This document shows positions 20,198-42,121 of a stretch of DNA of 64,000 nt, piece by piece. The DNA comes from an uncultured Bacteroidota bacterium (lineage in GTDB: Bacteria; Bacteroidota; Rhodothermia; Rhodothermales; DASSAV01), in contig CAWBQO010000002.1 of assembly GCA_963790965.1 (NCBI GenBank), forward strand, positions 273,651 through 337,650. The letters are read 5' to 3'. Each line of letters begins with the position of its first letter. Positions within the stretch are counted from its first letter, which is position 1. Position numbers and translations under genes: made by a program. The notes beneath the pieces were generated by a model. That model was not told where the DNA came from and did no database searches. It worked only from the letters and a program-made list of their open reading frames with translations.

Positions 20198-20351
20198 GCG
20201 GGCGTTTTGGGGAAAGGAGCGAGATTGCCAAGCGGAGGTCCCGGAAGAGAACCGTAGCCCTTAGAACGACGCGCGTTCCCCACAACCGTTGAAATTTGGC
20301 ATAATCCGGCTTTCCGGCACCGGATGCACGGAGCCGCCCGCCGTCATGCCG

Positions 20352-21338
20352 CTACCCGGGTTCATCTCCGGGCGAGAGCGAAAGCCAGTCATGAGGCCGG
20401 AAGAACCAGGCCGCCTTTTCCTCCGCGCTGCCGGGTTCCGGATGCCAGTCATATTCCCATCGGACGCGCGGCGGGAGACTCATCAAGATACTCTCCGTCC
20501 GCCCCCCCGTCTCCATGCCAAAGCGCGTCCCGCGATCGCGCAGCAAGTTGAACTCCGCGTAGCGCCCGCGCCTCAGCTCCTGGAAGTGCCGCTCCTCATC
20601 CGTCCATGATTGATCTTTTCGCCTGTCGACGATGGGCAGGTAAGCTCGAAGGAAAGCGCGGCCGGCCTCTCTCGTGAAGAAAAACGAGCCTTCCGGGTCG
20701 TCGCGCAGATGGTCGTAAAAGATGCCACCTACGCCGCGCGTCTCCTCTCGAAAAGGCAGATAGAAGTATTCGTCGCACTGGCGTTTGAAGCGGCCGTAGT
20801 CGGCGGCGGGGTGGCTGTCGCAGACTTCCTTCCAGACGGAATGAAATAGCTGCGCGTCGTTCAGGTGCGGATAATAGGGCGTCAGGTCGGCACCGCCGCC
20901 AAACCACGCATCCGACGGATGCAAGGTGTCGCCGCCAAGCGCAAAGTAGCGGAAGTTGGCGTGCACGGTGGGAACGTGGGGCGAGCGCGGATGGATAACC
21001 AGCGAAAGGCCGGTCGCAAAGAACCGCTCTCCCGAAGCGCCAAGCGCAGCCGCACCGGCTTCGGGCAACGTGCCGAAAACGGCGGACGTGTTGACACCGG
21101 CCTTCTCGAATACCTCGCCTCCTTCCAGCACCCGCGTCAGTCCCCCGCCGCCGCCGTCACGCTCCCAAGGATCGGAGCGAAAGCGGGCGACGGGTTCGTA
21201 CCGCTCCAGCGCGCGACAGATGCGAATCTGCAGCGCCTCCACGAATCGCTGCATCCGCTCGCCCATCGGCCGATCGGTGCGCGATTCCGCCCGGAGGCGA
21301 TCTACCCGCCGCTGATCATCCGGCATCGTTCCCGGCAC
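20352..21338 (-). CDS. hemF: Oxygen-dependent coproporphyrinogen III oxidase
   Basis: The motifs GGGGLTRVLEGGEVFEKAGVN, HPRSPHVPTVHANFRYF, WFGGGADLTPYYP and RRGRYAEFNLLRDRGTRFG are characteristic of HemF. Confidence 0.93.
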   Translation of the reverse strand: MPGTMPDDQRRVDRLRAESRTDRPMGERMQRFVEALQIRICRALERYEPVARFRSDPWERDGGGGGLTRVLEGGEVFEKAGVNTSAVFGTLPEAGAAALGASGERFFATGLSLVIHPRSPHVPTVHANFRYFALGGDTLHPSDAWFGGGADLTPYYPHLNDAQLFHSVWKEVCDSHPAADYGRFKRQCDEYFYLPFREETRGVGGIFYDHLRDDPEGSFFFTREAGRAFLRAYLPIVDRRKDQSWTDEERHFQELRRGRYAEFNLLRDRGTRFGMETGGRTESILMSLPPRVRWEYDWHPEPGSAEEKAAWFFRPHDWLSLSPGDEPG

Positions 21339-22041
21339 CCCCTTGCGGTGTTAAATCGGCCAGTAAGGCATCGATCTGTGTCTTGAACCGGCTTCCCCAC
21401 TCCTCCGGCGGAGGGGCGCTCCATGCAAGCGACTCCTTGCGCGTCGGGTGCTCGATACCCAGATAGGTGCAATGAAGGGCGATGCTGCGGTTGCCGAACG
21501 GCCGCTTTGCGCCGTACCGAAGATCGCCCAGAATCGGGGTGCCGCCGGCGGCGAGTTGCACGCGAATTTGGTGCGGCCTTCCTGTCAACAGGACCACCGA
21601 GAGGAGCGTCTGACCGTCCGCCGTTGCTACGGCTTCCCAGGTCAGCAGCGCCTGTGCCGCACCGGGATGATCGGGAGGCACGATGCGCACCTGCCGGTCC
21701 TCTTTAACCAAATAATCTTCGCAGCGCCCGGAGCCTGTCCGCACGCCATCCACGACGGCAAGGTAGCGCTTGTCCACCTTGCGGCGGCGAAACTGGTCGG
21801 AAAGACGCGCAGCCGACTTCGACGTCCGCGCGAGCATGAGCACGCCGGAGGCGGGTCGATCCAGCCGGTGCACGAGCCCAAGAAACACCTTGCCCGGCTT
21901 ATCGAACTTCTCCTTCAGGTAGGCCTTTCCGAGCGTCAGCACATCCGCGTCGCCGGTCTCATCCGCCTGAGAAAGCAGTCCGGAGGGCTTCATGACAACG
22001 AGGAGATGGTTGTCGAGATAGAGGACCGGCGGCATCTTCAT
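21316..22041 (-). CDS. RluA-family pseudouridine synthase
   Basis: The ORF is trimmed to [21 protein letters not shown], which forms an ATGA overlap with the upstream stop. The catalytic motif is GLVHRLDRPASGVLMLA, followed by a TGRPHQIRVQL motif. Its 3' end overlaps the hemF start by about 20 nt. Confidence 0.88.
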   Translation of the reverse strand: MKMPPVLYLDNHLLVVMKPSGLLSQADETGDADVLTLGKAYLKEKFDKPGKVFLGLVHRLDRPASGVLMLARTSKSAARLSDQFRRRKVDKRYLAVVDGVRTGSGRCEDYLVKEDRQVRIVPPDHPGAAQALLTWEAVATADGQTLLSVVLLTGRPHQIRVQLAAGGTPILGDLRYGAKRPFGNRSIALHCTYLGIEHPTRKESLAWSAPPPEEWGSRFKTQIDALLADLTPQGGAGNDAG

Positions 22042-22391
22042 CCCTGTAGCCGCTCCCGGTCCTTTCTCGGCAGGCCCTGCACCACGAGACCGTAGGAATG
22101 ATCCACCAGCGCCAGGGCTTCGCTGTCCGGCACGTTTCCATCCATCACGATGGTGTTCCAGTGGCGCTTGTTCATGTGGTAGCCCGGCGAGATGGACTCG
22201 TATCGCTCGCGGAGATCGGCGCTGCGCTCGGGATCGCATTTGAGGTTCATCGTAAAGGGCAGAGCGCGGAAGTTAACCATGCCGAACATCTTGCCGGCGA
22301 CTTTAAAGACCAGCACGTCTTCTCCAAAAGGAAAATCCTCGCAGGCTTCCGGCAGACCGAGGCAGTACGTTCTCAGGCGGTCAATGGTCAT
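22038..22391 (-). CDS. MmcQ/YjbR-family protein
   Basis: 117 aa. [29 protein letters not shown]...[11 protein letters not shown] matches my recollection of the YjbR fold family. Confidence 0.8.
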
Positions 22392-23485
22392 GGTGCCGAT
22401 ACCGTTTTTGAGCCGAAATCATCGCCGCCGCGGTGTGCGGCTTCGGACAGTGCGTGGACCGCATCCACAAAGGCTGCGGCATGGCCGGGATCGTGATCCG
22501 GGTGCATCCCGTGCCCGAGATTGGCGATGTGCCGCGTCGGACCGAAGGCACGGAGCATTTTCGCCACCTCCCGCTCGATAGTGGAAGGCGAGGCGTAGAG
22601 AACGACCGGGTCGAGGTTTCCCTGGAGCGTCTGGTCCGGCCCGACCTGCCCGCGAGCGGGAGCGGGATCCATCGTCCAGTCCAACCCGACCACCTCGAAG
22701 GCAGTCCGGCCAAGCGCCGGGAGCGCGTAGTGGGCACCTTTTGCAAAGACGATCTTCGGAACGCCGGGGCAGGATGATCCGACGCGCGTCGCGATTTGTT
22801 CGAGGTAAGGCAGCGCGAACGTCTCAAACGCGGCGGGCGAGAGCAGTCCGGCCCACGAGTCGAAAACCTGAAGCGCCTGTGCGCCCGCTTCAACCTGGCG
22901 AACAAGGTAGGGCACCAGCACATCCGTGATGCGCTGCAGCAAACGGTGGCTTTCCTGCGGGTAGCGGTAGAGCCACGATTTCGAGCGGGAGAAGGTTTTG
23001 CTTCCCCCGCCGTCGATCATGTAGGCCATGAGCGTCCACGGCGCGCCGCAGAAGCCGATAAGCGGTACTTTTCCGCTAAGCTCCCGGCGCGTAAGGCTGA
23101 TCGCGTCGTAGACGTACGCGAGGTCCGCTTCCACATTGCCGCCCCGAAGCCGACCGAGATCCTCCGGGCCTTGCAACGGCGACGGGAAGTGAGGCCCTTT
23201 CCCCTTGAGCATCTCCACTTCGAGGCCGAGCGCCTGCGGTACGACGAGGATATCAGAGAAGATGATCGCCGCGTCCACGTCGAAGCGGCGGACGGGCTGA
23301 AGCGTCACCTCCGCCGCGAGGTCGGGCGTTCGGCAGACAGTAAAGAAGGCGTCTTCAGAACGGAGCGCGCGGTATTCCGGGAGATAGCGACCTGCTTGCC
23401 GCATCATCCAAACGGGTGTGCGCTCGGTCTCTTCGCCGCGAGCCGCGCGAAGCAGGAGATCGTTCTTTAAGGGCGGAAGCGACAA
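22388..23485 (-). CDS. hemE: Uroporphyrinogen decarboxylase
   Basis: The N-terminus [32 protein letters not shown] and the motifs [14 protein letters not shown] and NLGHGM are diagnostic. Confidence 0.95.
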
Positions 23486-29676: not shown

Positions 29677-31191
29677 TTAGTTGGCGTCCCACCAGACCGG
29701 CTGGAGGAGTCCTTCCATGCCGCGGCCGATGCCGGTGGCAAGCGCATTCTCCTGATTCGTCGAGTATTCGCCCGACGGATAGGGGATGCGAACGGGAATC
29801 TGACCATTCGCGGTCTCGGGGCTTTCGACCGGCATGATCGACGCGGGATATCCCGTACGCCGCCAGTCGGTGAAGTTCTCCGTCGACAGGAAGTTGGCGA
29901 TGTACTTCTGCGTGATAATCGCTTCGAGAGCCGCCGCCTGCGACATGCCGTTAAGCGAAGCGAGCGAGGACACGTAGGCGTCGCGATTCGCCGCGCTCAC
30001 GCCGAGCATGTCCATGCTCGCGCGGACACCTGCCACGTATGCGTCCTGCGCTTCGCCCATGTGGCCAAGATACAGGTGGGCTTCAGCCGCAAGGAAGCGA
30101 GACTCCGCGTAGCTAAGCCAGAGCAGCGGAGAGTCCGGGCTGCCGTAGAACTCGCCGATGGCGGAGATGTCTGCGATGGACTCCGGCTCGGTGCCGTTGA
30201 TATGGCCGACATAGGTCGAATCGTCGACCGTCCAATCTTCGGCGGTTACCGGCTCAGGCTCAAAGCCTTCGACGTAGCCCGTGTTCGTGAGGGCACCGGT
30301 CTGCCGCGCCTGGATCGGCAAGCGAGGATCGTTCAGGTTCTTGAGGAGCCTGATATAATGGTCGCTCAGCTGGTAACGCTCGTCCCAGTCGTTGATCCAC
30401 TGGTACCACGGGTTCTCTTCGCCGGAACCGGAGCCGTACTGGAACCACGCATCGTCGTCGATGCTGGTGAAACCCTTCGCAAGGGCGTCGAGCGCCTTCT
30501 GCGCATGTTCGGTCTTCGATTCGCCGGGAGCATTCACAAGGTGCATGTGCATCCGGGCCTCGAGCGTATAGGAGAGTTTCTCCCACTGAGCGACGCCCGC
30601 CGCGCCGCCGCCGTAGATGAGATCGTTCAGGCCGGGCAGGGAGACGTTACCCTGCGTGAAGTCGACCTGCGCCGAATCGAGAAGCGCGAAGATGGCGTTG
30701 TAAACCGCCTTTTGTTCGTCATACGCCGGCGTCGAGTTGTCCGGATTGAAGGCTTCGGAATACGGGACGTCGCCGAAGAGATCCGTAACGATGCCGAGGT
30801 TCCAGGCCTCGATGGTGCGCGCAATACCGGCATAGGCATTGTTGCTGTCCGCGTCCGCCTTCATCTTGAGGAAGTGCGCGGACTTCATGGAGCCGGTATA
30901 GGAGTAGTAGGTCCAGAAGTTGTTGAAGTCGGATTCGACCACGCGGTAGGTGTCGAACTCCGGTATCTGGCCATTCCAGGCGAGCTGCTGAACCCAGAAG
31001 TTCGGCCAGCGCGCCGCATCGTTGCCCAGGATCTCGTACGAGAAAGTGGAGAGCATGCCGGAAAGGGCGAGGTTCTCCGGCACGACCGTCGGGTCGTTCG
31101 GGTTGTCGTTAAGGTCCGTCAGGTCGCAGCCCGCGCTGAAGGCGAGCAGCAGCACCGCGAACAGGGCTGTCAAAGACTTATTCATTCTCAT
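29677..31191 (-). CDS. SusD/RagB-family nutrient-binding outer-membrane lipoprotein
   Basis: It has the lipoprotein signal LLLAFSAGC and TPR-like helical content with typical SusD-like_2 motifs (NFWTYYSYTG, AYAGIARTIEAWNLGIVTDLFGDVPYSEA, NFTDWRRTGYP). It sits immediately downstream of the SusC-like gene. Confidence 0.92.
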   Translation of the reverse strand: MRMNKSLTALFAVLLLAFSAGCDLTDLNDNPNDPTVVPENLALSGMLSTFSYEILGNDAARWPNFWVQQLAWNGQIPEFDTYRVVESDFNNFWTYYSYTGSMKSAHFLKMKADADSNNAYAGIARTIEAWNLGIVTDLFGDVPYSEAFNPDNSTPAYDEQKAVYNAIFALLDSAQVDFTQGNVSLPGLNDLIYGGGAAGVAQWEKLSYTLEARMHMHLVNAPGESKTEHAQKALDALAKGFTSIDDDAWFQYGSGSGEENPWYQWINDWDERYQLSDHYIRLLKNLNDPRLPIQARQTGALTNTGYVEGFEPEPVTAEDWTVDDSTYVGHINGTEPESIADISAIGEFYGSPDSPLLWLSYAESRFLAAEAHLYLGHMGEAQDAYVAGVRASMDMLGVSAANRDAYVSSLASLNGMSQAAALEAIITQKYIANFLSTENFTDWRRTGYPASIMPVESPETANGQIPVRIPYPSGEYSTNQENALATGIGRGMEGLLQPVWWDAN

Positions 31192-31274
31192 TTGCTTTTA
31201 GGAGCAAGGTAAAAGGCATGGTGAAGAAGCGAGCCGGGCGGTAGGCACGAAGCCTGGCCGCCCGGCCTCGTTCT

Positions 31275-34200
31275 TTACAGCGTCAGCTGGAGCGTGAGCT
31301 GGAAGGAGCGCGTGTTGGGCGTAACCATGTGATAGAAGCCCTGCGCGTTGCCGGTACCGGCGAGGCTGCCTTCGGGATCGCCGCCGGTGAAGTCCGTGCC
31401 GATCCAGAGATTGCGGCCCGTGCCGATGATGCTCATGTTCTCCACACCGTAGCGCCGGGTGAAGGTCGACGGAAGGGTATAGCCGAGGCTAACCTCACGC
31501 AGCTTGATGAAGCTGCCGTCTTCGACGAAGTTTTCAAACACCTGTCCGAAGCGTGAGCTTTGGAAATACGCCTGGTTGGTGGGCACTTCGACGTTGTTCG
31601 CCTCCCCTTCGTTCGGAAGACCCGGTGCATTCACGCCTCCGTAATTGATCGTTCCTTCACGATTTTCGGTCTCTTTGGCGATGCCGTAGTAGGTCGTGTA
31701 GTACCGGTCGAAGTTGAGCAGGTCGCCGCCGTGACGAATGTCGAGCAGCGCGTTGACCGAAAGGCCCTTGAAGGTCACACCCGTACGGATGTTTGCGAGC
31801 CAGTCCGGCTGCACGTAGCCAAGCGCACCGTCCTCATCTGCGATGAGCGGCAGGCCGTAGTTCACGTTCGCCGCTCCGTTGGAGAGCGTCGGCCGCGAGT
31901 CGATGAGCAGCTGCCCGTTGTCGTTGCGCGCCCACTGGCTGCCCCAGATGGCCCCGTATCCGCCCGTCTCCGGCATAATGCGGATCTGCGGCGTGGTGAA
32001 GCCATAGAGGAAGATATTCTCGACGCCGGGCGCGAGTTCGACCACGTCCGTGACGTTCTTGGACCAGTTGACCTGAACGTCCCAGAAGAGGTCTCGCGTG
32101 CGGACCGGTGCCAGGCTCAGAGAGACTTCACCGCCCCGGTTACGGACTTCGCCCGCATTCAGGTTACGGCTGACGTACCCCGTCGACGGTGCGAGCGGCA
32201 CGTTAAAGATCTGGTCCTTCGTCGAGCGGTTGTAGTACGCCACGTCGAGGGAGATCCGGTTGCTGAAGAACTGCAGGTCTGCGCCTACTTCGTACTCCGT
32301 GCTCAGCTCCGGCTTGAGCGCCGGGTTGAGGAGCGTGTTGCTCGGCACAAAGCCGTTGACGCCCATGAACGGGAAGTCAATGTTGCCGCCCTGTCCGTCG
32401 CCCGGTGCCGCCTGCGTGTAGATGGTCTGGAGCTGGTACGGACTGGTGTCGCTACCGATCTGCGCCACGGAAGCCCGCAGCTTACCGAAATCCATCCACG
32501 TTCCTGTATTGATCAGTTCCGTGAACACGAGACTGACACTCGCCGACGGGTAGAAGTACGAGTTGTTGTCCTTCGGCAGCGTGGAGCTCCAGTCGTTACG
32601 GCCCGTCACCGTGAGGTAGGCGAGCTGGTCGTAATCGAGCGTCGCCTGGCCGTAGACGCTCGTCAGGCCCCGCTTGAAAATGTTCTCGTTGCCCGTGACG
32701 TTGGAGGCGTTCCCGATGTTGTAGTAACCGGGAATGCCAAGGCCGCGGCCGTTCAGGTAGTTGTACTGATTCTGGCGGCGATTGATGTTGTTGCCAAGGA
32801 CCGCGTTCAACGCAAACTTCGGCGAAAGCTGACGGTCTGCCGTGACGGTAAGATCGGAGTTGATCTCGCGGCGGCGGAACGTGTTGTCAAACACGGCACC
32901 GTCGGTCACGCCGCGGAAGCCGAGGTTGAACGTCTGCTTACGCGCGTCCGTGTACGTGTCGATACCGAGGCGCTCCGCGATGGAGAGCCAGGGAAGGATC
33001 TTGTACTGCATCTGGGCGCTACCAATGATGCGGTCGACATCGCTGCCGACGGCGCTGTTCTTGGTAAGCCAGAAGGGATTGTTGAACGAGTTGGAGTACG
33101 AGCGCTGCGTCTCGTCAGGGAACAGGTAGTTCGTGAGGTCGAACGTTATCGGCGCGAAGTTGAGGCCGTAGGTGAACGCCGCTGCACCGTTACCCTCGGA
33201 CAGGGTATTGTTCTCCGTGCGGATGTAGTTCGCCGACGCTTCTGCGCGCAGCTTGGGGCTAAGCTCGCCGGAGAACTTCGCCAGCACGCTCGTGCGCTTG
33301 AGATCCGTGGTCGGCACGATGCCCCCCTGGTCGAGGTTCGTGAACGAGAGGAAGTAGCTGTTGCCGACGCCGCCGCCGGTGACGCTCACCGACTGTTCGA
33401 GCGTATTGCCGGTCTCGTAGAACTGATCGCGGGGATCGTAGACAGGGATCGTCGTGAAACCCAGATCTTCGCGCGTGCTCGCGAATGACGGGCTGAAGTT
33501 CAGCGAATCGATGGCAGGACCCCAGGAGCTATTCGTCTGCCCGGTGACACCAAAGCCGGCGTTCGAGCGATAGCCGCCCTCGCTGGCCGGAAGGTTGTTG
33601 TAGAAGATGCCGTTCGTGCCGGCGGCGTACTTGTTCTGGTAGCCGTCGATGATGGCTTCATCCCAGCGGCCGCTGACGCGGTAGGAAACGCGGGGGCCGG
33701 CACCGGCGGTGGTCGTTCCGAGGCCGCCCTTCGTCGTGATGAGCACGGCGCCGTTGGTTGCGCGGGAGCCGTAAAGCGCCGTTGCGGCGGCACCTTTAAG
33801 GATCGTGATGTCCTGGATGATGTTCGGGTCGATGTCCACCGCGCGGTTGGACATGCCGCCCGTGCGGACGGACGTGGCGTAGAGGTTCGCGTCCTCCGCG
33901 TTGGAGATCGGAACGCCGTCTACCACGAAGAGCGGCTGGTTCTCGCCAAGGAGCGAAGAGATGCCGCGAATCTGGATGCGGGAGCCGCGTCCCGGCTGGC
34001 CTGACGAGCTTGTGATCTGAACACCTGCCACTTTACCGGCAAGGGCGTTGACCAGGTTCGATTCCGCCGCGCGGTTGACTTCGTCCGACTCGACTTCGCT
34101 GACGGAATACCCGAGGCTTCGCGTCTCGCGCTCGATGCCGAGGGCGGTCACCACGACTTCGTCGAGGTCAATGCCGCCTTCGACGAGCTGAACGCGCAGG

Positions 34201-34487
34201 TTGAGCGTTTCGCCCGGGCGAATGACGACGGGCGCGGAGTAGTCCGCATAACCCACGAAGCTAACGAGGAAGTTGTAGGATCCGGAGGGGGCAGCAAAGC
34301 TGAACCGCCCCTGTACGTCGGTGGCTGTGCCGAAGGTAGTGCCTTCGAGGGCCACGTTGGCACCCGGCAGGGCCTCTCCTTCGGGCGTGAGCACGACGCC
34401 TTCTACCAGGCCGTCCTGCGCGAAGGCGGCTCCCGGCAGGAGTATCAGGGCCAGTACCCAGATAAACCGTAGGAAGTTTGTTCTCAT
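31275..34487 (-). CDS. SusC/RagA-family TonB-dependent outer-membrane receptor
   Basis: 1070 aa. Signal peptide, carboxypeptidase-regulatory-like domain (GVVLTPEGEALPGANVALEGTTFGTATDVQGRFSF), plug (IQIRGISSLLGENQPLFVVDGVPI), long beta-barrel and terminal aromatic-rich strand. Confidence 0.95.
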   Translation of the reverse strand: MRTNFLRFIWVLALILLPGAAFAQDGLVEGVVLTPEGEALPGANVALEGTTFGTATDVQGRFSFAAPSGSYNFLVSFVGYADYSAPVVIRPGETLNLRVQLVEGGIDLDEVVVTALGIERETRSLGYSVSEVESDEVNRAAESNLVNALAGKVAGVQITSSSGQPGRGSRIQIRGISSLLGENQPLFVVDGVPISNAEDANLYATSVRTGGMSNRAVDIDPNIIQDITILKGAAATALYGSRATNGAVLITTKGGLGTTTAGAGPRVSYRVSGRWDEAIIDGYQNKYAAGTNGIFYNNLPASEGGYRSNAGFGVTGQTNSSWGPAIDSLNFSPSFASTREDLGFTTIPVYDPRDQFYETGNTLEQSVSVTGGGVGNSYFLSFTNLDQGGIVPTTDLKRTSVLAKFSGELSPKLRAEASANYIRTENNTLSEGNGAAAFTYGLNFAPITFDLTNYLFPDETQRSYSNSFNNPFWLTKNSAVGSDVDRIIGSAQMQYKILPWLSIAERLGIDTYTDARKQTFNLGFRGVTDGAVFDNTFRRREINSDLTVTADRQLSPKFALNAVLGNNINRRQNQYNYLNGRGLGIPGYYNIGNASNVTGNENIFKRGLTSVYGQATLDYDQLAYLTVTGRNDWSSTLPKDNNSYFYPSASVSLVFTELINTGTWMDFGKLRASVAQIGSDTSPYQLQTIYTQAAPGDGQGGNIDFPFMGVNGFVPSNTLLNPALKPELSTEYEVGADLQFFSNRISLDVAYYNRSTKDQIFNVPLAPSTGYVSRNLNAGEVRNRGGEVSLSLAPVRTRDLFWDVQVNWSKNVTDVVELAPGVENIFLYGFTTPQIRIMPETGGYGAIWGSQWARNDNGQLLIDSRPTLSNGAANVNYGLPLIADEDGALGYVQPDWLANIRTGVTFKGLSVNALLDIRHGGDLLNFDRYYTTYYGIAKETENREGTINYGGVNAPGLPNEGEANNVEVPTNQAYFQSSRFGQVFENFVEDGSFIKLREVSLGYTLPSTFTRRYGVENMSIIGTGRNLWIGTDFTGGDPEGSLAGTGNAQGFYHMVTPNTRSFQLTLQLTL

Positions 34488-34825: not shown

Positions 34826-35518
34826 TTACAGGCCGAGCAAACGCGGAAGCTCCGGCCAGGCCGAGAAGCGCATGAACGCCTCCTCCGCGGACGCGGCAGG
34901 CTCGTCGGTGTACCACGCCGCCTGCCACCCGGCACCGAGCGCGCCCTCTACGTCGGACGCATACGAATCGCCGATGTAAAGGATGTCGGCCGGGGGCACC
35001 CCCGCCTTTTCCGCAGCATAGCCAAAGAGCGCAGGATGCGGCTTGAAGTAACCCACCAGATCGGACACGACGGTGGCCTGCAGACGGTCGCGTATTTCGG
35101 GAAACCGTTCGAGCTTCGCCGCCTGAACATCCGAAAAACCGTTCGTCAGGACACCCACGGGAAAGCGGTCCGCAACGCGGTTGAAGGCATCCAGCGCTCC
35201 CTCGAGCACCGTCCAGTGCGCCGCGTAGCGCTCCATGTAATGGGCATCAAAACGCGCCGCTTCGGCCCCGCTAACACTGAGACTGTGGATCAACTTTTCA
35301 AAGCGCAGCCTCCGGAGGTCGGCCGAGTTGATCTCGCCTAGCGCGTACTTCCGCCAGAGAGGCACGTTGTGCAGATGGTATTCCTCCTGTAACTGCTGAA
35401 CACTGAGTCCGGAGAAAAGGATCGGAAACTTGCCGTGCAGGTCCTGAAGCGCCATGCGCTCGGCGTGACGGTGGTCGAGCAGCGTGTCGTCGAGGTCGAA
35501 ATAAACGAACTGAATCAA
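34826..35518 (-). CDS. HAD-superfamily hydrolase (YjjG-like subfamily IA)
   Basis: Motif I FDLDDTLLD, motif II VLTNG, motif IV YIGDSYASDVEGA. It overlaps the upstream gene by 4 nt. Confidence 0.85.
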   Translation of the reverse strand: MIQFVYFDLDDTLLDHRHAERMALQDLHGKFPILFSGLSVQQLQEEYHLHNVPLWRKYALGEINSADLRRLRFEKLIHSLSVSGAEAARFDAHYMERYAAHWTVLEGALDAFNRVADRFPVGVLTNGFSDVQAAKLERFPEIRDRLQATVVSDLVGYFKPHPALFGYAAEKAGVPPADILYIGDSYASDVEGALGAGWQAAWYTDEPAASAEEAFMRFSAWPELPRLLGL

Positions 35519-36726
35519 AGAGCGGACGGGTCTCGGGTTGGTTGGGAGAAGCTCATCTCGAACATGGCATATTCCTTGTCCTTGACGCCGTTGATTGCGT
35601 GAAGCGAGTTGATCATGACACTGTTCACGTCCAGAATCCAGCTCATCTCCGACGCATCGTAGCCGTTCTTTGGCCCTTCCGTGATCGTGGCGAGGTTGAG
35701 CATGGCGTCGATACCACGGCCCTGATGGTCGAGCAGGACGCCCATGAGCAGCGTGCGCACTTCGTAGATACCGCCGAACTTGCTCGCGCCGAGGAGTTGA
35801 ACGAGGCCGTTCGGAACCAGCCGCCCGTTCTTCACGCGCCGCATGGCCAGGTTGATGTTCGGCAGCGAAATGGAAAAGGCGACGGGAAAGCCGTTGTCCT
35901 CGACGATGAAGACGATCTTGGGATCGACGATCTGCTTCATCTGCTTGATGAGCTGCGCGAACTCGCCGTCAGTCATGGGGACGTGGCCCCAGTTGTGCGA
36001 CCATGCGTCATTATAAATGCGCAGAATGTCCCGCGCTTCCTGGTCGAAGCGGCTCATGTCGAGCGGGCGGACGGTAAGGCCGGGATTGCGCCGCCGCACC
36101 AACTCGACGCCCCGCCGCAGCTTGTCGATCTGGACGTACTTCTTGTGGACGTAGTACGCCCACATGGTCATGGCGCGGGTGAAGCCGTACTGGAGCAAGA
36201 ACTGCTCGTAGTAGGGCGGATTGTACGGCATCAGAACGGAAGGCTCCCGGTCGAAACCGCCGACGAGCATTCCGGCCATGTCATTCATCGACGGATTCGT
36301 GGGGCCTCGGACGCCGGTAAGGCCCTGCTCCTGCAACCAGGCGCGCGCCGCGCCCAGGAGCGCCTCCGCGACGGGGTAGCTCTCGACGCACTCAAAGAAG
36401 CCGAAGAAGCCGTTTCCGTCGTTGTACTTCTTGAGGTGCATCCCATTGACGAGCGCCGCGATGCGCCCGACGACGTTCCCCTCGCCGTCCTCGGCCAGGA
36501 ACAGCTGCCTCTTGCCGTGTTCGTAAAAGGCGTTCTTCTTCGTGTCGAGCGCGTGCGCCACGTCCTGCCGTAGCTGCGGGATGAAAAACTCGCTGTCGCG
36601 GTAGAGCGCGTACTGAAAATCGATGAACCGCCGGAGGTCGCCCCTTCCCTCTGCTTTGCGCACGCGGAGTCCTGCCGGCGCGACTGCCGCCGCCGCATCC
36701 ATAGGGGCGGAAAGTGCTGTCGTCAT
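35515..36726 (-). CDS. Large GNAT-fold acyltransferase-like protein of unknown specificity
   Basis: 403 aa. FIDFQYALYRDSEFFIPQL...FLAEDGEGNVVGRIAALVN...GFFGFFECV...GVRGPTNPSMNDMAGMLVGGFDREPSVLMPYNPPYYEQ matches a family I recall being annotated only as GNAT N-acetyltransferase. It is tightly linked to the alpha-oxoamine synthase gene, 10 nt away. Confidence 0.65.
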   Translation of the reverse strand: MTTALSAPMDAAAAVAPAGLRVRKAEGRGDLRRFIDFQYALYRDSEFFIPQLRQDVAHALDTKKNAFYEHGKRQLFLAEDGEGNVVGRIAALVNGMHLKKYNDGNGFFGFFECVESYPVAEALLGAARAWLQEQGLTGVRGPTNPSMNDMAGMLVGGFDREPSVLMPYNPPYYEQFLLQYGFTRAMTMWAYYVHKKYVQIDKLRRGVELVRRRNPGLTVRPLDMSRFDQEARDILRIYNDAWSHNWGHVPMTDGEFAQLIKQMKQIVDPKIVFIVEDNGFPVAFSISLPNINLAMRRVKNGRLVPNGLVQLLGASKFGGIYEVRTLLMGVLLDHQGRGIDAMLNLATITEGPKNGYDASEMSWILDVNSVMINSLHAINGVKDKEYAMFEMSFSQPTRDPSAL

Positions 36727-36736
36727 ACGCCCACCC

Positions 36737-38032
36737 TCAAACGGCTCCGTTGGCGTGAATGACGCCGTGCTTCATCCCGACGCGCTTGAAGGCTTCGAGA
36801 ATGAAGTCCAACTCGTCATCGGTATGGGTGGCCATGTACGAGGTGCGCATGAGCGACTGCCCGGCGGGCACGGCCGGCGGAATGACGGCGTTGACGAAGA
36901 CGCCCTCGTCCAGCAAGTCCTTCCAGAACCGGAAGCACGTCATCATGTCCCCGATCACTACGGGGATGATGGGCGTCTGGCTCGTCCAAACATTGAAGCC
37001 GAGGTTCCGGAAGCCTTCGCGCATGTAGTCGGAGATCTGCCAGAGGCGCTCGAGGCGTTCGGGTTCTTCTTCTAGAATATCGAGGCACTTGAGCACCGTA
37101 GCCACGTTGGCCGGCGGCATGGACGCGGCGAAGATGTGCGCCGAAGAGCTGTGGCGGATGTACTCGATCACGTCATGCTCGCCTGCGCAAAAGCCGCCGA
37201 GCGAGGCGAAGCTCTTCGAGAACGTGCCCGTCGTGAGCGCTACGCGGTCGCCGAGGCCGAAGTACGCAGCCGACCCGCGTCCGCCGGGGCCGATCACGCC
37301 GACGGCGTGTGCGTCGTCGAGCATGAGGGCCGCATCGAACTCCTCGGCCAGATCGACCAGTTCCGGAATGCGCGCCACGACGCCGTTCATGGAGAACACG
37401 CCGTCCGTGACGATGAGCTTGCCCGCCGTGCGGCGTTCCCTGTGCGCCTTTTCCAGCAGCTTTCGCAGGTGCGCCATGTCGTTGTGGCGGTAGCGCCACG
37501 TATCGGCAAGGCTGACCTGCGTGCCGGCCACAATGCAGGCGTGGTTGTCCTTGTCCGAGAAGATGATGTCGCCCTTGCCCGCCACCGCCTGAATGACGCC
37601 CTGATTGGTCATGTAGCCGGTGGAAAAGAGGACGACCGCCTCCTTGCCCATGAACCGCGCCAGCTTCTCCTCGAGCTCAATGTGAATATCGAGCGTTCCG
37701 TTCAGGAAGCGGCTGCCCGTGCATCCGGTGCCATACTGCTGGATCGCCTTGACCGCCGCTTCCTCAACGCGCGGGTCGGAGAGCAGGCCGAGGTAGTTGT
37801 TCGACCCGGCCATGATAATCTCACGCCCGTTCATGATGGCGCGGCTGCCGTCGTTGCGCTCGATGGGGCGGAAGTACGGGTAGAGGTCGGCCGCCGTCAC
37901 GGTCTGATAGTCGCCTTCCGGCTGAAAGAACTCGTGCGCCTTGCCGAAGATGGTCGGCGACGACTGCGTCGGCGTTTGCTGCCCTTCCACGAGGTCTTCG
38001 GGTAGTCTTTCAAAAATGCTTGGTATGGTCAT
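36737..38032 (-). CDS. Serine palmitoyltransferase-like alpha-oxoamine synthase (PLP-dependent acyl-CoA:amino acid C-acyltransferase)
   Basis: GSNNYLGL, GCTGSRFLNGTLDIHIELEEKLARF, VLFSTGYMTNQG, DKDNHACI, DDAHAVG, PLP-lysine motif GTFSKSF and C-terminal VFVNAVIPPAVPAGQSLMRTSYMATHT. From memory the pattern is closer to bacterial SPT than to BioF or Kbl. Confidence 0.85.
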   Translation of the reverse strand: MTIPSIFERLPEDLVEGQQTPTQSSPTIFGKAHEFFQPEGDYQTVTAADLYPYFRPIERNDGSRAIMNGREIIMAGSNNYLGLLSDPRVEEAAVKAIQQYGTGCTGSRFLNGTLDIHIELEEKLARFMGKEAVVLFSTGYMTNQGVIQAVAGKGDIIFSDKDNHACIVAGTQVSLADTWRYRHNDMAHLRKLLEKAHRERRTAGKLIVTDGVFSMNGVVARIPELVDLAEEFDAALMLDDAHAVGVIGPGGRGSAAYFGLGDRVALTTGTFSKSFASLGGFCAGEHDVIEYIRHSSSAHIFAASMPPANVATVLKCLDILEEEPERLERLWQISDYMREGFRNLGFNVWTSQTPIIPVVIGDMMTCFRFWKDLLDEGVFVNAVIPPAVPAGQSLMRTSYMATHTDDELDFILEAFKRVGMKHGVIHANGAV

Positions 38033-38131
38033 AACGCTTAACCTCGACGTGGTGCAATCGCGCAGTCATAAAGTAACGCGCAGGCCCTCGAAAGTATATG
38101 CTAATAAAGTGTTGTGGAATCGATCTGTTTG

Positions 38132-39262
38132 TCAGGCGGCCAGTTCGGCGTTTACCTTCTGCAATGGAGGGGCGTCGTCTTGGCGCGCGTAGCCGTTGGT
38201 CCTGCTCGCGAGCATCGCTTCAATGGCATCCACGGCGTCAGCGTTGCCGCAGGCCTTTCTCCCTTGCATCCGCGCGCGGTAAAGATCGCACCGGCTCAGG
38301 AAGCCTCGCACATCGTCCGCACGCAGTGGCCGGTTGAAGACCGCTTCGCCAAGCCCCTCGCGCTCGAGGAACATGGCGTTGATCGTCTGCTCGAAAATGC
38401 CGCGGTTCGGGACCACGAGGAGCGGCTTGCCGAGAAAGAGCGACTCGCTCATGAGCGTAAAGCCGGCCGTACACACGACGGCGCGGCAGGCCGCGAGGTC
38501 GTGAAGAAAGCCTTCCACCGAGGGCGTCCGAAAAGTCAGGTTCGGATACTCTTCCGGACGCTCAGGTTCGGGAAAGTTGTAGACGACGAAGGGCGCATCC
38601 ACCTGCCGAAGGGCGTCGAGCACGAAATCTGCTCCCTCGGTCTGATTGTAATACACCAGCACGCGATCGCCTTCTGAGGGCGCAAGCTGCTGCACGACGG
38701 GGCGGATGATCGGCGGGACGAGCGTTGCGCGATCCGGATGGAGGAGCGGCGGGAAGAAGAAAGACGTCATCAGGATGTGCTCCGGCTTTTTGGGAGCAAT
38801 CAGCCCGATGGCGAGCTTCGTCACTGCAGCCGCAGGGCGGTCCCGCATCGGAAGGTGGTACCGCGTCTCCGTGACGACCTGCTGATGGTTAAACGAGACT
38901 ACGGGCAGGCCTATCTTCTTCGCCGCCCTGGGCGAGAACGCTTCAAAGTCCGTGATGAGCAGGTCGGCCCGCTCGGCTCTGAACCGCTCCGCGAGATCCG
39001 AGACGATCCTCGGTATAGAGACGATATGCTTGAGGTTGCACAGGAGCGTGCGTCCGTGTTGAACCTCGTTGCCGCGCATCACCTGCCGGAGCGCCGGCAC
39101 GGGCAGAACGCGCTCGCCGCGCGACTCCATAATGTCCCGTGCCGTTCCGCCGCAGCACAGGAGCACCTCATGCCCGCGCTCACGCAGCGTGGCAGAAATG
39201 GCCATCACCCTCGAGGTATGCCCACGCCCTTGTCCGCTAAGTGCATAGATAATTTTCGACAT
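38132..39262 (-). CDS. GT-B fold glycosyltransferase (MJ1255 / UDP-glycosyltransferase-like)
   Basis: The ORF is trimmed to MSKIIYALSGQGRGHTSRVMAISATLRERGHEV, the typical N-terminal G-rich loop of this family. The C-terminal half reads VCTAGFTLMSESLFLGKPLLVVP. Confidence 0.8.
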   Translation of the reverse strand: MSKIIYALSGQGRGHTSRVMAISATLRERGHEVLLCCGGTARDIMESRGERVLPVPALRQVMRGNEVQHGRTLLCNLKHIVSIPRIVSDLAERFRAERADLLITDFEAFSPRAAKKIGLPVVSFNHQQVVTETRYHLPMRDRPAAAVTKLAIGLIAPKKPEHILMTSFFFPPLLHPDRATLVPPIIRPVVQQLAPSEGDRVLVYYNQTEGADFVLDALRQVDAPFVVYNFPEPERPEEYPNLTFRTPSVEGFLHDLAACRAVVCTAGFTLMSESLFLGKPLLVVPNRGIFEQTINAMFLEREGLGEAVFNRPLRADDVRGFLSRCDLYRARMQGRKACGNADAVDAIEAMLASRTNGYARQDDAPPLQKVNAELAA

Positions 39263-39548
39263 AGGGCAAGGGAACGCATCGGGGGCTTCATAAACAGGGG
39301 CGAACCGCCCTCCGGATGCTACGCGATCTATAAAAAAGCAGGAGGCGCGCCGGCATCGGCCGAAGGCGCTCAAGAAGACCAGAAAGACTTTAAGACTGCA
39401 GACCGTTGACGCGCAATGCCGATCCACGGCAGCGAGACGGCGGCTGTAACGTGTTACGAATGCCAAAGGTTGCGACGCGCGCTCCCGGCTGCCCCTCCGG
39501 CATTGCACATGTACCGCTTCCTCTTGAGAGCTATAGACCGCCGGCAAG

Positions 39549-40262
39549 CTACAGAGACCATCTCACGGCGAGCGCAGCGCCGCGAGGCACCGGCCGCAGC
39601 GAAACCGTCAGATCCTCCCCCACGTCAAAATCGAGCAGGTGAGCGCTCACGTAAGCGTCGAGCACGGTAAGGCCATAGAATAAGCCGACGCCAAGGTAGG
39701 AAAGGTCACGGTTGCGCCGAAATATATCCCGTTGATCGCGCAGAGAGCGGCCGACTTCAGCACCGCGCGCCTTCTGCCGCTCGACACATCCCGCGTCGCC
39801 GTTGCAGATCAGCGACAGCGCCTCGTCGTACTCTGCCCCGTACGCCTCCCGGTACTGAGGCGGACGCTTCTCATCCGCCACGTCCTTATAAGTCGCATAT
39901 AGAGCGGCCCGCCGGAAGATGAGGTAGTCGTGGTTGCTTCGATAGGCGAGGAATCCGATGCCGCCAAGCCCCGCATACACGAATGGCAACTTGTAGTACT
40001 GCCGGTTATAAACTTGCCCCCACCCGGGTATCACCGCCGCGCGGCGCAAGGCGGTAGCGGGCGAATGCGGGGAGGGCGGCACGTCGATCACCTCGATGCC
40101 GTCGCCAGCACGCTCCGGACCCGGAATGTCTCCGAGGGGAATGACCGTAGCGGCCGAATCGGCCGTCTGCGCTACGGCAGCGGGCGTCCCGACGCAGAGC
40201 AGAAGCACAGCCGTCGCAAAGACGAAGCGCCTCAAGGTGGACGGCGCGTGGGCGCTCCTCAA
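39549..40262 (-). CDS. DUF5683-like membrane protein (conserved partner downstream of parB in Bacteroidota)
   Basis: It has a signal/TM segment, the motif AAVIPGWGQVYNRQYYKLPFVYAGLGG and a C-terminal GVGLFYGLTVLDAYVSAHL. It lies 5 nt downstream of parB. Confidence 0.75.
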   Translation of the reverse strand: MRSAHAPSTLRRFVFATAVLLLCVGTPAAVAQTADSAATVIPLGDIPGPERAGDGIEVIDVPPSPHSPATALRRAAVIPGWGQVYNRQYYKLPFVYAGLGGIGFLAYRSNHDYLIFRRAALYATYKDVADEKRPPQYREAYGAEYDEALSLICNGDAGCVERQKARGAEVGRSLRDQRDIFRRNRDLSYLGVGLFYGLTVLDAYVSAHLLDFDVGEDLTVSLRPVPRGAALAVRWSL

Positions 40263-40267
40263 ACCAC

Positions 40268-41221
40268 TTACACGTGGAGCAGCTCCATGAGCCGCTCCAG
40301 GTCCTCAGCGGAATAATAGGCGATCTCGATCCGCCCGCCGGCATCATCGGACTTGTGTCGGATCTGCACCTGCGTGCTGAAGTGCGAACGAAGCCGGTCG
40401 GTAAACTGGCGAATCTGGAGCCTATCGCGCTCCATCGCGGGAGCGTCCTGCCCCTCCTCCTCCGGCGTCCCGCTACCGGCACCGTCCTTCCGCTGGTGCC
40501 AGAGCCGCACGAGTTCTTCCACTTCGCGCACCGAAAGCTGCCGGTCTTGAACGGCGCGCAGCATTTCGACCTGCGCCTCTTCCTGTTCGACGTTGATGAG
40601 CGCGCGCGCGTGTCCGGTCGTGATGGTGCCGTCGCGCAGCGCCGCCTGCACGCGCGTCGGCAAACGGAGCAGGCGCAGAAAATTGGCAACGGTCGCGCGG
40701 TTCTTCCCCACCTTCGCCGCAACCTGCTCCTGCGTCAGACTGCACTCGTCGATGAGGCGCTGGTACCCGAGGGCGATTTCCATCGGGTTCAACTCCTCAC
40801 GCTGCACGTTCTCGACGATCGCCATCTCCAGCATCGCTTCGCTGTCGGCTTCGCGCACGTACGCGGGGATGCGGACCAGAGCGGCCTTGCGGGCCGCGCG
40901 CAACCGCCGTTCTCCGGAGATGATCTCGAAGCGACCCTGTCCGAGCGAGCGCACCGTCACGGGCTGGATGATGCCGAGGTGACGGATGGATTCCGCCAAT
41001 TCTTCCAGCGCCGCCTCGTCGAAGTCCCGCCGGGGCTGATAAGGATTCGGGCTGATGCTCTCCACTTCGATCTCCGCCACTCGCCCGGCGAGGCGCGAGC
41101 GCTCGTCGAGCGAGTAGACGCGGCTGGCGGGCCGCCCTTCTGCGCGATCTTCGTCCTCGGCACTCTGGTTCGATATGAGCGCGCTGAGTCCCCTTCCGAG
41201 TACCGCTTTCCCTTTCGACAT
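40268..41221 (-). CDS. parB: Chromosome partitioning protein ParB/Spo0J
   Basis: ParB box NPYQPRRDFDEAALEELAESIRHLGIIQPVTV, GERRLRAA and HTH LTQEQVAAKVGKNRATVANFLRLLRLP. Confidence 0.93.
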   Translation of the reverse strand: MSKGKAVLGRGLSALISNQSAEDEDRAEGRPASRVYSLDERSRLAGRVAEIEVESISPNPYQPRRDFDEAALEELAESIRHLGIIQPVTVRSLGQGRFEIISGERRLRAARKAALVRIPAYVREADSEAMLEMAIVENVQREELNPMEIALGYQRLIDECSLTQEQVAAKVGKNRATVANFLRLLRLPTRVQAALRDGTITTGHARALINVEQEEAQVEMLRAVQDRQLSVREVEELVRLWHQRKDGAGSGTPEEEGQDAPAMERDRLQIRQFTDRLRSHFSTQVQIRHKSDDAGGRIEIAYYSAEDLERLMELLHV

Positions 41222-41260
41222 GCTGTTCTATATATACTGACGGCGAGAAGTCACCGGGCG

Positions 41261-42121
41261 TCATCCATTGACGGCAGCGGAGGATCGCTTTCGCGGCGCA
41301 GGCGCGTTGATCACGGAGCTAAGCTCCTCGCCGCCGCTGCCGGACGCCGCCACGAACTTCCGGTTGTTCTTGATGATCTCTTTGGCAACGGCCATGTAGT
41401 TGCGCGATCCGACGCTCGTAGCGTCGTAGAGCAGGACCGGCTTACCGAACGAGGGGGCTTCCGAGAGGCGGACGTTGCGCTGCACCACCGTCTTGAACAC
41501 CTTCTCAGCGAAATAGCGGCGAACCTCCTGCGCCACCTGGTTCGAGAGGCGCAGGCGCGTATCGAACATGGTCAGAAGCACGCCTTCAATCTCCAGACCG
41601 GGGTTCAGCTCGTTGCGAACCATGCGGATGGTGTTGAGAAGCTGGCCGAGGCCTTCAAGCGCAAAATACTCGGCCTGCACCGGGATGAGCACCGAGTCCG
41701 CAGCCGTGAGGGAGTTGAGCGTCAGCAGGCCGAGCGAGGGCGGGCAGTCGATGATAACGAAATCATACTTGCGCCGGGCGTGCTCGAGCGCCTTGTTCAA
41801 GATGCGCTCGCGCTGCGCCACGTCCACCATCTCGATCTCCGCGCCGACAAGGTTGATGTGGCTCGGCACCAATTCGAGAAAGGGCATCTCTGTTGGCAGG
41901 ACAGACTCTTCCACGGTTGTCTGGCCGATGAGCACCTCGTAGGTGGTCGCCGTGACCGTCCGCGGATCGATGCCGATGCCCGACGTGCAGTTCGCCTGCG
42001 GATCGATGTCAATCAGCAGCGTCGGGTGCTCCGTCGCAGCAAGCGAAGCGGCGACGTTGACCGACGTGGTCGTTTTCCCGACCCCGCCCTTCTGATTGGC
42101 AACTGCAATGACCTTTCCCAT
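41261..42121 (-). CDS. parA: Chromosome partitioning ATPase ParA/Soj
   Basis: The ORF is trimmed to [19 protein letters not shown], the deviant Walker A. It also has [11 protein letters not shown]. The C-terminal ~40 aa tail is non-canonical. Confidence 0.93.

Follow-up and report, generated by a model that had tools for sequence, protein, structure and literature searches.

In a member of the Rhodothermales, a predicted Spt-like alpha-oxoamine synthase (AOS) was found to be encoded next to a GNAT-fold protein of 403 aa that is, by sequence, a homologue of the bCerS family. The locus probably supplies the two enzymes with which bacterial ceramide synthesis begins, in the form of an Spt-bCerS module. 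The Rhodothermales, among which are thermophiles and extreme halophiles, are the deepest branch of the Bacteroidota. An earlier note on this DNA had suggested a pathway of an uncharacterised kind, encoded by a four-gene operon, and neither part of that suggestion was borne out. Since the AOS is Spt-like and the GNAT protein a bCerS homologue, the locus is taken as a further instance of a bacterial sphingolipid pathway that is already known: the Spt-bCerS route to the ceramide backbone has been described before, and what is new is its probable occurrence in the Rhodothermales, an order from which no ceramides have been reported. The locus consists of a conserved two-gene core (AOS-GNAT) to which two variable genes, for a glycosyltransferase (GT) and a HAD hydrolase, are added.

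The window, i.e. the whole stretch of 64 kb that was analysed, contains the four co-directional ORFs between positions 34826 and 39262 (Table 1). The gaps between them, given in the earlier reading as -4 to about 100 nt, are 99 nt (GT to AOS), 10 nt (AOS to GNAT) and -4 nt, an overlap of 4 nt between the end of the GNAT gene and the start of the HAD gene. The GT, AOS and HAD proteins were identical to public annotation calls in exact-sequence look-ups. The public call for the GNAT gene uses an alternative start at 36702, 8 codons later, which gives a protein of 395 aa and widens the AOS-GNAT gap to 34 nt. The ParA-ParB-DUF5683 genes (DUF5683 is PF18935 in Pfam) form a synteny anchor and lie outside the pathway; a 286-nt gap with a terminator-like hairpin at 39310-39298 separates DUF5683 from the GT gene. 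Scans for sigma-70 promoters and for terminators were uninformative for Bacteroidota.

Table 1 Genes of the AOS-GNAT locus and its upstream neighbours (positions in the window)
Feature	Position	Strand	Description
GT	38132..39262	-	376 aa; GT-B glycosyltransferase, MJ1255/VC2487 family (PF13528, TIGR00661)
AOS	36737..38032	-	431 aa; predicted Spt-like alpha-oxoamine synthase, PF00155
GNAT-like	35515..36726	-	403 aa; bCerS-family tandem-GNAT acyltransferase (predicted)
HAD	34826..35518	-	230 aa, TTG start; HAD-IA hydrolase, YjjG/YfnB-like
ParA, ParB (40268-41221), DUF5683 (39549-40262)	within 39549..42100	-	conserved upstream neighbours

The AOS matched Pfam PF00155 with an E value of 7e-54, and the motifs from which it had originally been recognized (GSRFLNGT, STGYMTNQG, GTFSKS and PPAVPAG...LMRTS) are all in its translation. 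The proposal that it is nearer to SPT than to BioF or Kbl held up in the comparisons by HMM and phylogeny. The best NCBIfam model was SerpalmtaseCFB (NF047600) with 485 bits, every other model scoring at most 394 bits (NF047599, 385 bits with a cutoff of 500; Kbl, 387 with a cutoff of 460; BioF, 389 with a cutoff of 426). Although 485 bits is below the equivalog cutoff of NF047600 (640 bits), this SPT model is still the best by 91 bits. The best PDB matches, at 404 bits, were the S. multivorum SPT structures 3a2b and 8guh, followed at a distance by Thermus BioF/Kbl (294 bits) and by the CapB/SulA structures (246, the score for CapB, and 236 bits). With the characterised S. multivorum SPT (SmSPT), the AOS shares 49 % of its residues. 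In a neighbour-joining (NJ) tree of 12 sequences, built without bootstrap and without HemA or CapB sequences, it clusters with SmSPT and with AOSs linked to bCerS, while Kbl and BioF of E. coli fall outside. The bCerS-linked partner AOSs of other lineages also score highest on SPT models.

The active-site residues point in the same direction. The AOS has the PLP-binding Lys273, His164, Asn78, Arg396 and, 30 positions after the lysine (K+30), Ala303. The roles of these residues in Spt have been described, and SulA carries Lys281 at K+30, where Spt has Ala (PMC9304779); Kbl and BioF of E. coli have Asn and Thr at this position. Across the 62 Rhodothermales orthologues that were aligned, Lys, Arg and Ala are invariant, and His and Asn are each present in 61. 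The scores, the tree and these residues together argue for an Spt-like enzyme, with serine as the predicted substrate. The catalytic residues are the same as those of SmSPT, and, as elsewhere in Bacteroidota, no dedicated ACP gene adjoins the gene. The protein differs from the Bacteroidota SPTs in being extended by about 40 residues at its N-terminus, in its score relative to the equivalog cutoff and in that its gene adjoins bcerS, whereas the sphingolipid genes of Bacteroidia have been reported to be dispersed. In public annotations, the orthologues are often named "8-amino-7-oxononanoate synthase" or "glycine C-acetyltransferase".

Sequence searches of Pfam, NCBIfam and PDB with the 403-aa protein gave no match; PF00583 was detected in the C-terminal half of its relatives. 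Structure prediction, as had been proposed, yielded a tandem-GNAT fold: the AlphaFold (AF2) model (pLDDT 86, pTM 0.84) had as its top Foldseek matches the tandem GNATs 5kf1, 7q3a, 2wpw and MshD, with TM values of 0.55-0.60. The link with bCerS was first found by tblastn against annotated plasmids. Using BLASTP, 33 % identity to E. coli YghO was obtained over residues 20-390 (E 5e-72), and a full-length match, also with 33 % identity (E 1e-65), to an N-acetyltransferase of Sphingomonas (S. parapaucimobilis). The genes for both of these proteins are located in sphingolipid clusters with spt, ACP, a CerR-type SDR and lptF/lptG paralogues. YghO has been given as the counterpart of Caulobacter CC_1154 ("aca"), which is cerS/bcerS (PMC9386255), and according to the secondary literature CC_1154 is genetically required for ceramide in Caulobacter. 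The bCerS assignment runs via this equivalence of YghO in the literature, the sequences compared being those of YghO and of the Sphingomonas protein.

By sequence, the 403-aa protein is truly homologous to the bCerS/CC_1154/YghO family, beyond mere analogy, and its predicted activity is that of an N-acyltransferase. The suggestion that it is of the ceramide-synthase type thus stood with respect to family and fold, and the acylation reaction is what these would predict. At E <= 0.001, the family to which it belongs counts about 6,600 cluster representatives, of which only a part are demonstrated bCerS orthologues. Like the known bCerS proteins (CC_1154/CCNA_01212, YghO/ECD_02850 of E. coli B and the Swit_3908 type), with which its homology is full-length, it lacks transmembrane segments, being a soluble protein of about 380 aa with a tandem-GNAT fold, and it is genetically linked to spt. 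It differs from them in its limited identity and in its surroundings: the gene is directly downstream of spt, and no ACP, acyl-ACP synthetase, CerR or LptF2/G2 gene is nearby. A polyamine-acylating GNAT, hinted at by adjoining polyamine genes in Roseithermus, was considered and rejected, as this block is an insertion in two loci (L001 and L030) only.

Within the Rhodothermales, the AOS and GNAT genes are adjacent at 74 of the 79 loci. The GT gene is directly upstream of the AOS gene at 25 of 65 loci, in a patchy distribution across the tree, and the HAD gene adjoins the GNAT gene at 43 of 76; in Roseithermus, HAD has stayed with GNAT though AOS is 6 kb off. Conserved linkage is seen for the core pair, and not for the four genes as a set. 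The order ParA-ParB-DUF5683-[GT]-AOS-GNAT is present at nearly all Rhodothermales loci. As the gene arrangement of the window recurs in dozens of Rhodothermales genomes, it is not due to chance. Synteny inside one order may in part reflect shared ancestry rather than selection. A scan of genome contigs returned Rhodothermales only, the peptide patterns used being too specific. AOS-GNAT-SDR clusters were found across phyla, in Rubrobacter, in Streptomyces and in two metagenomic lineages, some of them together with PAP2_3 or MGDG-synthase-type GT genes, and fusions of AOS with GNAT and of GNAT with a fatty-acyl-AMP-ligase exist. These Spt-bCerS-CerR clusters, which occur in Actinomycetota and uncultured lineages (Rubrobacter, Streptomyces plasmids; loci L087, L089 and L091), have the same AOS and GNAT families in the same order, with head-group genes (GT or PAP2) attached, as in the window. 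They differ in carrying an extended-SDR reductase, which the window locus does not, and the GT of the window is of PF13528 and not of the MGDG_synth/GT28 type.

The GT matched PF13528 (E 2.7e-72) and scored 154 bits, under the cutoff, on TIGR00661; in PDB, weak similarity to YjiC-type GT1 enzymes and to MurG was observed. Distant homologues are located on plasmids of Bacteroides and Fibrella, in contexts that are uninformative on GT function. The HAD protein matched PF00702 (E 1e-21) and PF13419, had YjjG_YfnB as its best NCBIfam model (128 bits; cutoff 160) and resembled 3qnm and YfnB in PDB. To our knowledge, neither family has a role in sphingolipid synthesis, nor does the PF13528 GT family have one in lipid synthesis. 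The GT might be a ceramide glycosyltransferase, as a variable accessory of the core; the HAD protein, likewise a variable accessory, would be an optional extra, possibly acting on the head group.

As had been noted before, the four genes include no ketoreductase, and no CerR-type reductase was found in the 64-kb window. A CerR-type SDR is also absent from the 8-kb flanks of most relatives; in three close relatives, a CerR-like extended SDR is encoded about 6 kb downstream. BT_0972, the reductase of Bacteroides, is likewise unlinked to SPT. The absence of a linked reductase would be explained if the pair produced a non-canonical lipid that is never reduced, either an N-acyl amino-ketone or 1-deoxy-type lipid made from alanine or glycine or a stable 3-oxo-ceramide, which would then be tailored by the GT and HAD enzymes. 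1-Deoxy-ceramides have been published for Bacteroidota, and the score of the AOS under the SPT equivalog cutoff would fit as well. This explanation is nevertheless unlikely in view of the BT_0972 precedent, the downstream SDR of the three relatives and the match of the AOS active site with that of serine-using Spt.

The pair might also make a sulfonolipid of the capnoid/halocapnine type, if the AOS used cysteate, or a sulfonated amino acid related to it, in the condensation with an acyl thioester and the product were then acylated by the GNAT protein. The CapA/CapB(SulA)/CapC pathway likewise starts with an AOS-family condensation, leads to sphingoid-like lipids and occurs in the same phylum. 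Halocapnine sulfonolipids have been reported from the Salinibacteraceae of this order (Salinibacter and Salisaeta), with the biosynthetic genes unnamed in the literature examined, and Salinibacter and Salinivenus share the AOS-GNAT(-HAD) locus, with 71-74 % AOS identity. However, the position of Lys281 of SulA is occupied by Ala303 in the window and by Ala in all 62 orthologues, the CapB/SulA structures score far under SPT, no cysteate synthase or CapC gene is near the locus, and Rhodothermus has the orthologue yet no reported halocapnines. The capnoid-type alternative raised earlier thus finds no backing: a capnine/SulA identity for the AOS was rejected on account of the Ala at K+30, and sulfonolipid synthesis by the pair is decidedly unlikely. 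A last explanation would make the AOS a Kbl or BioF with a housekeeping task in threonine degradation or biotin synthesis, next to the GNAT gene by inherited synteny without functional coupling. It draws on the public names of the orthologues, on the position next to parAB and identity of 71-84 % across the Rhodothermales, as for a core gene, and on the 387-394 bits of the BioF and Kbl models. None of these models reached its cutoff and all are about 90 bits under the SPT model; in addition, tdh and bio genes, whose absence next to the AOS gene had been pointed out before, were not found in the whole window, and AOS-GNAT adjacency and fusion are seen again in unrelated phyla. Together with the tree and the residues at K+30, the scores and the context argue against a Kbl or BioF identity for the AOS, which was rejected, and make this explanation highly unlikely.

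For the preferred Spt-bCerS module, the following route can be proposed. Judging from its homology and active-site residues, the AOS would form 3-ketosphinganine by condensing L-serine with long-chain acyl-CoA or acyl-ACP, and the 403-aa protein, by its homology and conserved linkage, would N-acylate this base to oxo-dihydroceramide. Reduction of the keto group would then fall to an unlinked reductase, as is the case in other Bacteroidota. Where the GT is present, in a subset of the Rhodothermales to which this genome belongs, it might transfer the sugar of a nucleotide-sugar to the ceramide. To the translationally coupled HAD protein, no step could be assigned.

The findings leave the known pathway logic unchanged. 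They suggest a function for a large family of proteins left without a name in current HMM libraries, correct the frequent BioF/Kbl labels on the partner AOS and place spt and bcerS in tight linkage in a basal Bacteroidota lineage, as opposed to the dispersed genes of Bacteroidia. In the literature examined, DPG and PE are given as the main polar lipids of Rhodothermus, and ceramide is not mentioned; the prediction is that the Rhodothermales make (glyco)ceramides and that cultured members such as Rhodothermus, Roseithermus and Salinibacter should hold ceramide-type lipids missed by routine polar-lipid descriptions. A wider proposal, tentative and rather doubtful, is that the Rhodothermales make an unreported ceramide-type lipid by means of the compact spt-bcerS module next to parAB, and a glycosyl-ceramide where the PF13528 GT is present. 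If true, the latter would be made by a GT family for which we know of no lipid role, and in the Salinibacteraceae the module could provide the entry point that is still missing from halocapnine biosynthesis.

The region 34826-39262 contains four ORFs, all running in one direction on the minus strand and specifying a glycosyltransferase (GT), an alpha-oxoamine synthase (AOS), a GNAT-fold protein and a HAD hydrolase. The GT and AOS genes are separated by 99 nt and the AOS and GNAT genes by 10 nt, while the GNAT and HAD genes overlap by 4 nt. The families of GT, AOS and HAD were backed by Pfam and NCBIfam scans. Both the co-directional arrangement and the AOS motifs quoted in the earlier note were borne out, every motif being found in the AOS translation. 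A GC-rich hairpin and a T-rich tract lie between the DUF5683 gene and the start of the GT gene. The hairpin may end the parAB-DUF5683 transcription unit, in which case the four genes would form a separate one. On the 3' side of the HAD gene, past a gap of 338 nt, a SusC-like TonB-dependent transporter (1070 aa) and a SusD-like lipoprotein (504 aa) are encoded.

Coordinates of features in the window and, where named, in loci of relatives
Feature	Coordinates	Strand	Remarks
TamB-family protein, 1576 aa	7761-12491	plus	
Heme-biosynthesis group	18932-23485	minus	
SusC/SusD-like pair	29677-34487	minus	assigned from ORF translations
HAD hydrolase, 230 aa	34826-35518	minus	TTG start; PF00702; YjjG/YfnB-like, below cutoff
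GNAT, 403 aa	35515-36726	minus	start 8 codons later in one public gene call
AOS, 431 aa	36737-38032	minus	PF00155
GT, 376 aa	38132-39262	minus	PF13528; TIGR00661 family
Hairpin, then T-rich tract	39298-39310	minus	
parAB-linked DUF5683 gene	39549-40262		
Chemotaxis-type hybrid, 1386 aa	49448-53608	minus	
Second DUF5683-domain protein, 359 aa	60091-61170	plus	
CerR-like SDR in L014	15411-16415	minus	
Roseithermus polyamine block, L001	4802-9893		
P0257 in L087, 780 aa	8001-10343		AOS::GNAT fusion
P0232 in L093, 940 aa	8001-10823		GNAT::fatty-acyl-AMP-ligase fusion

Elsewhere in the window, a second and longer DUF5683-domain protein is encoded far from the parAB-linked copy, and in a large hybrid protein CheB methylesterase and CheR methyltransferase are joined to several PAS domains and a histidine kinase. 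A heme-biosynthesis group (ferrochelatase, coproporphyrinogen oxidase, uroporphyrinogen decarboxylase) and a TamB-family protein are also present. A function as outer-membrane lipid transporters has been discussed for TamB-type proteins of Bacteroidota; no tie between this one and the AOS-GNAT locus was found.

The AOS is, as judged from its sequence, an Spt-like enzyme, in agreement with the proposal in the earlier note that it is nearer to serine palmitoyltransferase (SPT) than to BioF or Kbl. Its top NCBIfam model was NF047600 (Bacteroidota serine palmitoyltransferase) with 485 bits against 394 for the runner-up, the curated cutoff being reached by no NCBIfam model. Among PDB structures, Sphingobacterium multivorum SPT (SmSPT) scored 404 bits, Thermus BioF/Kbl 294 and E. 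coli Kbl 277, and the alignment with SmSPT (49 % identity) is almost without gaps. In a small neighbor-joining tree, made without bootstrap and without CapB and HemA sequences, the AOS clusters with SmSPT and with AOSs of other phyla that adjoin homologues of the 403-aa protein; Kbl and BioF of E. coli are not part of that group. These lower scores and the tree speak against a Kbl or BioF identity. The names "glycine C-acetyltransferase" or "8-amino-7-oxononanoate synthase" carried by public Rhodothermales orthologues (P0323, P0339, P0321, and others) are probably mistaken.

A cysteate acyltransferase of the SulA/CapB type is likewise disfavored, as the CapB and SulA structures scored only 246 and 236 bits and the site 30 residues past the PLP lysine, which is Lys281 in SulA and Ala in Spt (PMC9304779), is Ala303 in the window. 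This residue is Ala in 62/62 Rhodothermales orthologues, the Salinibacter/Salinivenus clade included; the active-site positions (PLP lysine, His, Asn, Arg) are each kept in 61-62 of the 62. The published lipids of Salinibacteraceae comprise PC, glycolipids, and halocapnine sulfonolipids, and those of Rhodothermus are mainly DPG and PE (PMC5167729). That the AOS-GNAT pair serves halocapnine synthesis is an unattractive reading, given the invariant Ala and the presence of the same orthologue in Rhodothermus.

The GNAT protein gave no matches in Pfam, NCBIfam, or PDB sequences. Its AlphaFold model, made with 45 homologues (mean pLDDT 86, pTM 0.84), consists of two GNAT-like halves, and the best PDB folds were the tandem GNATs Clostridium glucosamine N-acetyltransferase, MAB_4324, clavulanate tandem GNAT, and MshD (TM-scores 0.55-0.60). 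The family comprises 6,594 cluster representatives (50 % identity, E <= 0.001), mostly of about 375 aa. The key family link came from tblastn against annotated plasmid records, which led to E. coli YghO (33 % identity over residues 20-390, E 5e-72 by BLASTP) and a Sphingomonas parapaucimobilis N-acetyltransferase (33 %, E 1e-65 by BLASTP). The E. coli gene surfaced there via PLSDB records of 4.8-11.9 Mb, evidently chromosomes filed as plasmids (NZ_OL790696.1, NZ_CP141089.1, NZ_AP026896.1, NZ_LT559118.1). Next to it stands a block encoding a fatty acyl-AMP ligase, an SDR of the NAD-dependent epimerase family, an ACP, and an AOS, with lptF/lptG paralogues; the Sphingomonas cluster contains an NAD(P)H-binding protein, ACP, AOS, an ATP-binding protein, LptF, LptG, a desaturase, and the N-acetyltransferase. 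The same arrangement is known from Caulobacter, where it spans CC_1165 to CC_1154 (PMC11324152). YghO (ECD_02850) is listed with CC_1154 and Swit_3908 as an acyl-CoA N-acyltransferase needed for dihydroceramide (PMC9386255), and CC_1154/CCNA_01212 has been named cerS/bcerS (PMC11324152). The 403-aa protein is therefore assigned to the bacterial ceramide synthase (bCerS) family, a homology that goes beyond the analogy drawn in the earlier note.

The window proteins were compared by tblastn with 83 non-redundant Rhodothermales loci, throughout which the order ParA-ParB-DUF5683-[GT]-AOS-GNAT-[HAD] is repeated. In 74/79 loci, less than 400 nt separates AOS from GNAT; in the other five, the two are still co-directional, 0.4-6 kb apart. 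Their identity across the order (AOS 71-84 %, GNAT 57-73 %) marks them as a core pair. GT adjoins AOS in 25 of the 65 loci with enough flank and HAD adjoins GNAT in 43/76; where there was room on both sides (61 loci), 14 had both, 9 GT only, 20 HAD only, and 18 neither, in a patchy pattern on the AOS+GNAT tree. The supposed four-gene operon is thus a conserved AOS-GNAT core with two variable accessory genes in constant slots. In Roseithermus (L001; also L030, R. sacchariphilus), a polyamine block (deoxyhypusine-synthase-like protein, arginine decarboxylase, CN-hydrolase, agmatine-deiminase-type protein) lies between the AOS and bCerS genes, HAD keeping its place beside the latter.

Linkage was also seen outside the order, among GNAT relatives of 33-41 % identity: AOS-GNAT-SDR in Rubrobacter radiotolerans and a Streptomyces plasmid, AOS-GNAT-SDR(epimerase/3-beta-HSD type)-PAP2_3 in locus L089, and AOS-GNAT-GT(MGDG_synth type)-SDR in L091. 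SPT models score highest for the AOSs of the latter two. The fusion P0257 has an SDR and a PAP2 protein as its neighbors, and the fusion P0232 adjoins an MGDG-synthase-type GT. Two further bCerS-domain proteins of this sort are P0246, a partial AOS::bCerS of 648 aa, and P0122, in which two bCerS-like stretches make up part of 784 aa. Adjacency and fusion across phyla argue that the pairing is functional, more than inherited synteny.

A search by tblastn with seven CerR-like queries and Pfam scans of other large ORFs revealed no CerR-type extended SDR, classical SDR, PAP2, lipid kinase, ACP, or acyl-ACP synthetase in the 64-kb window, as the earlier note had stated for the ketoreductase in the operon. 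Three of the closest relatives (L008, L014, L015) carry a CerR-like extended SDR (Epimerase/3Beta_HSD), 36-37 % identical to that of L091, about 6 kb downstream of HAD on the opposite strand. The intervening genes are housekeeping ones (GT2, Ham1, 2-oxoglutarate dehydrogenase), whereas the window has the SusC/SusD pair downstream of HAD. As the Bacteroides reductase BT_0972 is unlinked to SPT (PMC9278070) and the three ceramide genes of Bacteroidota are reported to be scattered (PMC11334938), the lack of a reductase in the window is not strong evidence for the different chemistry that had been considered.

In the proposed pathway, Spt would form 3-ketosphinganine by condensing a long-chain acyl thioester with L-serine, bCerS is predicted to N-acylate this product in the cytoplasm, and an unlinked reductase would finish dihydroceramide; acylation precedes reduction in the Klein laboratory model (PMC11087976). 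The roles of GT and HAD are hypotheses. The GT-B enzyme is weakly similar to enzymes with lipophilic acceptors, namely MurG and GT1 members of the YjiC type, and may add a hexose, as suggested by its position and by analogy with L091 and L093. HAD is translationally coupled to bCerS, and a role as phosphoserine or lipid-phosphate phosphatase is speculation.

In conclusion, the core idea of a sphingoid-type synthase with an N-acyltransferase was right, and is now firmer for the latter. The novelty is below that claimed for an uncharacterised pathway, as the locus appears to be a further example of the known Spt-bCerS module. Nothing tying Rhodothermales to ceramide synthesis genes was found in the literature searched. 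What is new here is the occurrence of the module in this order.
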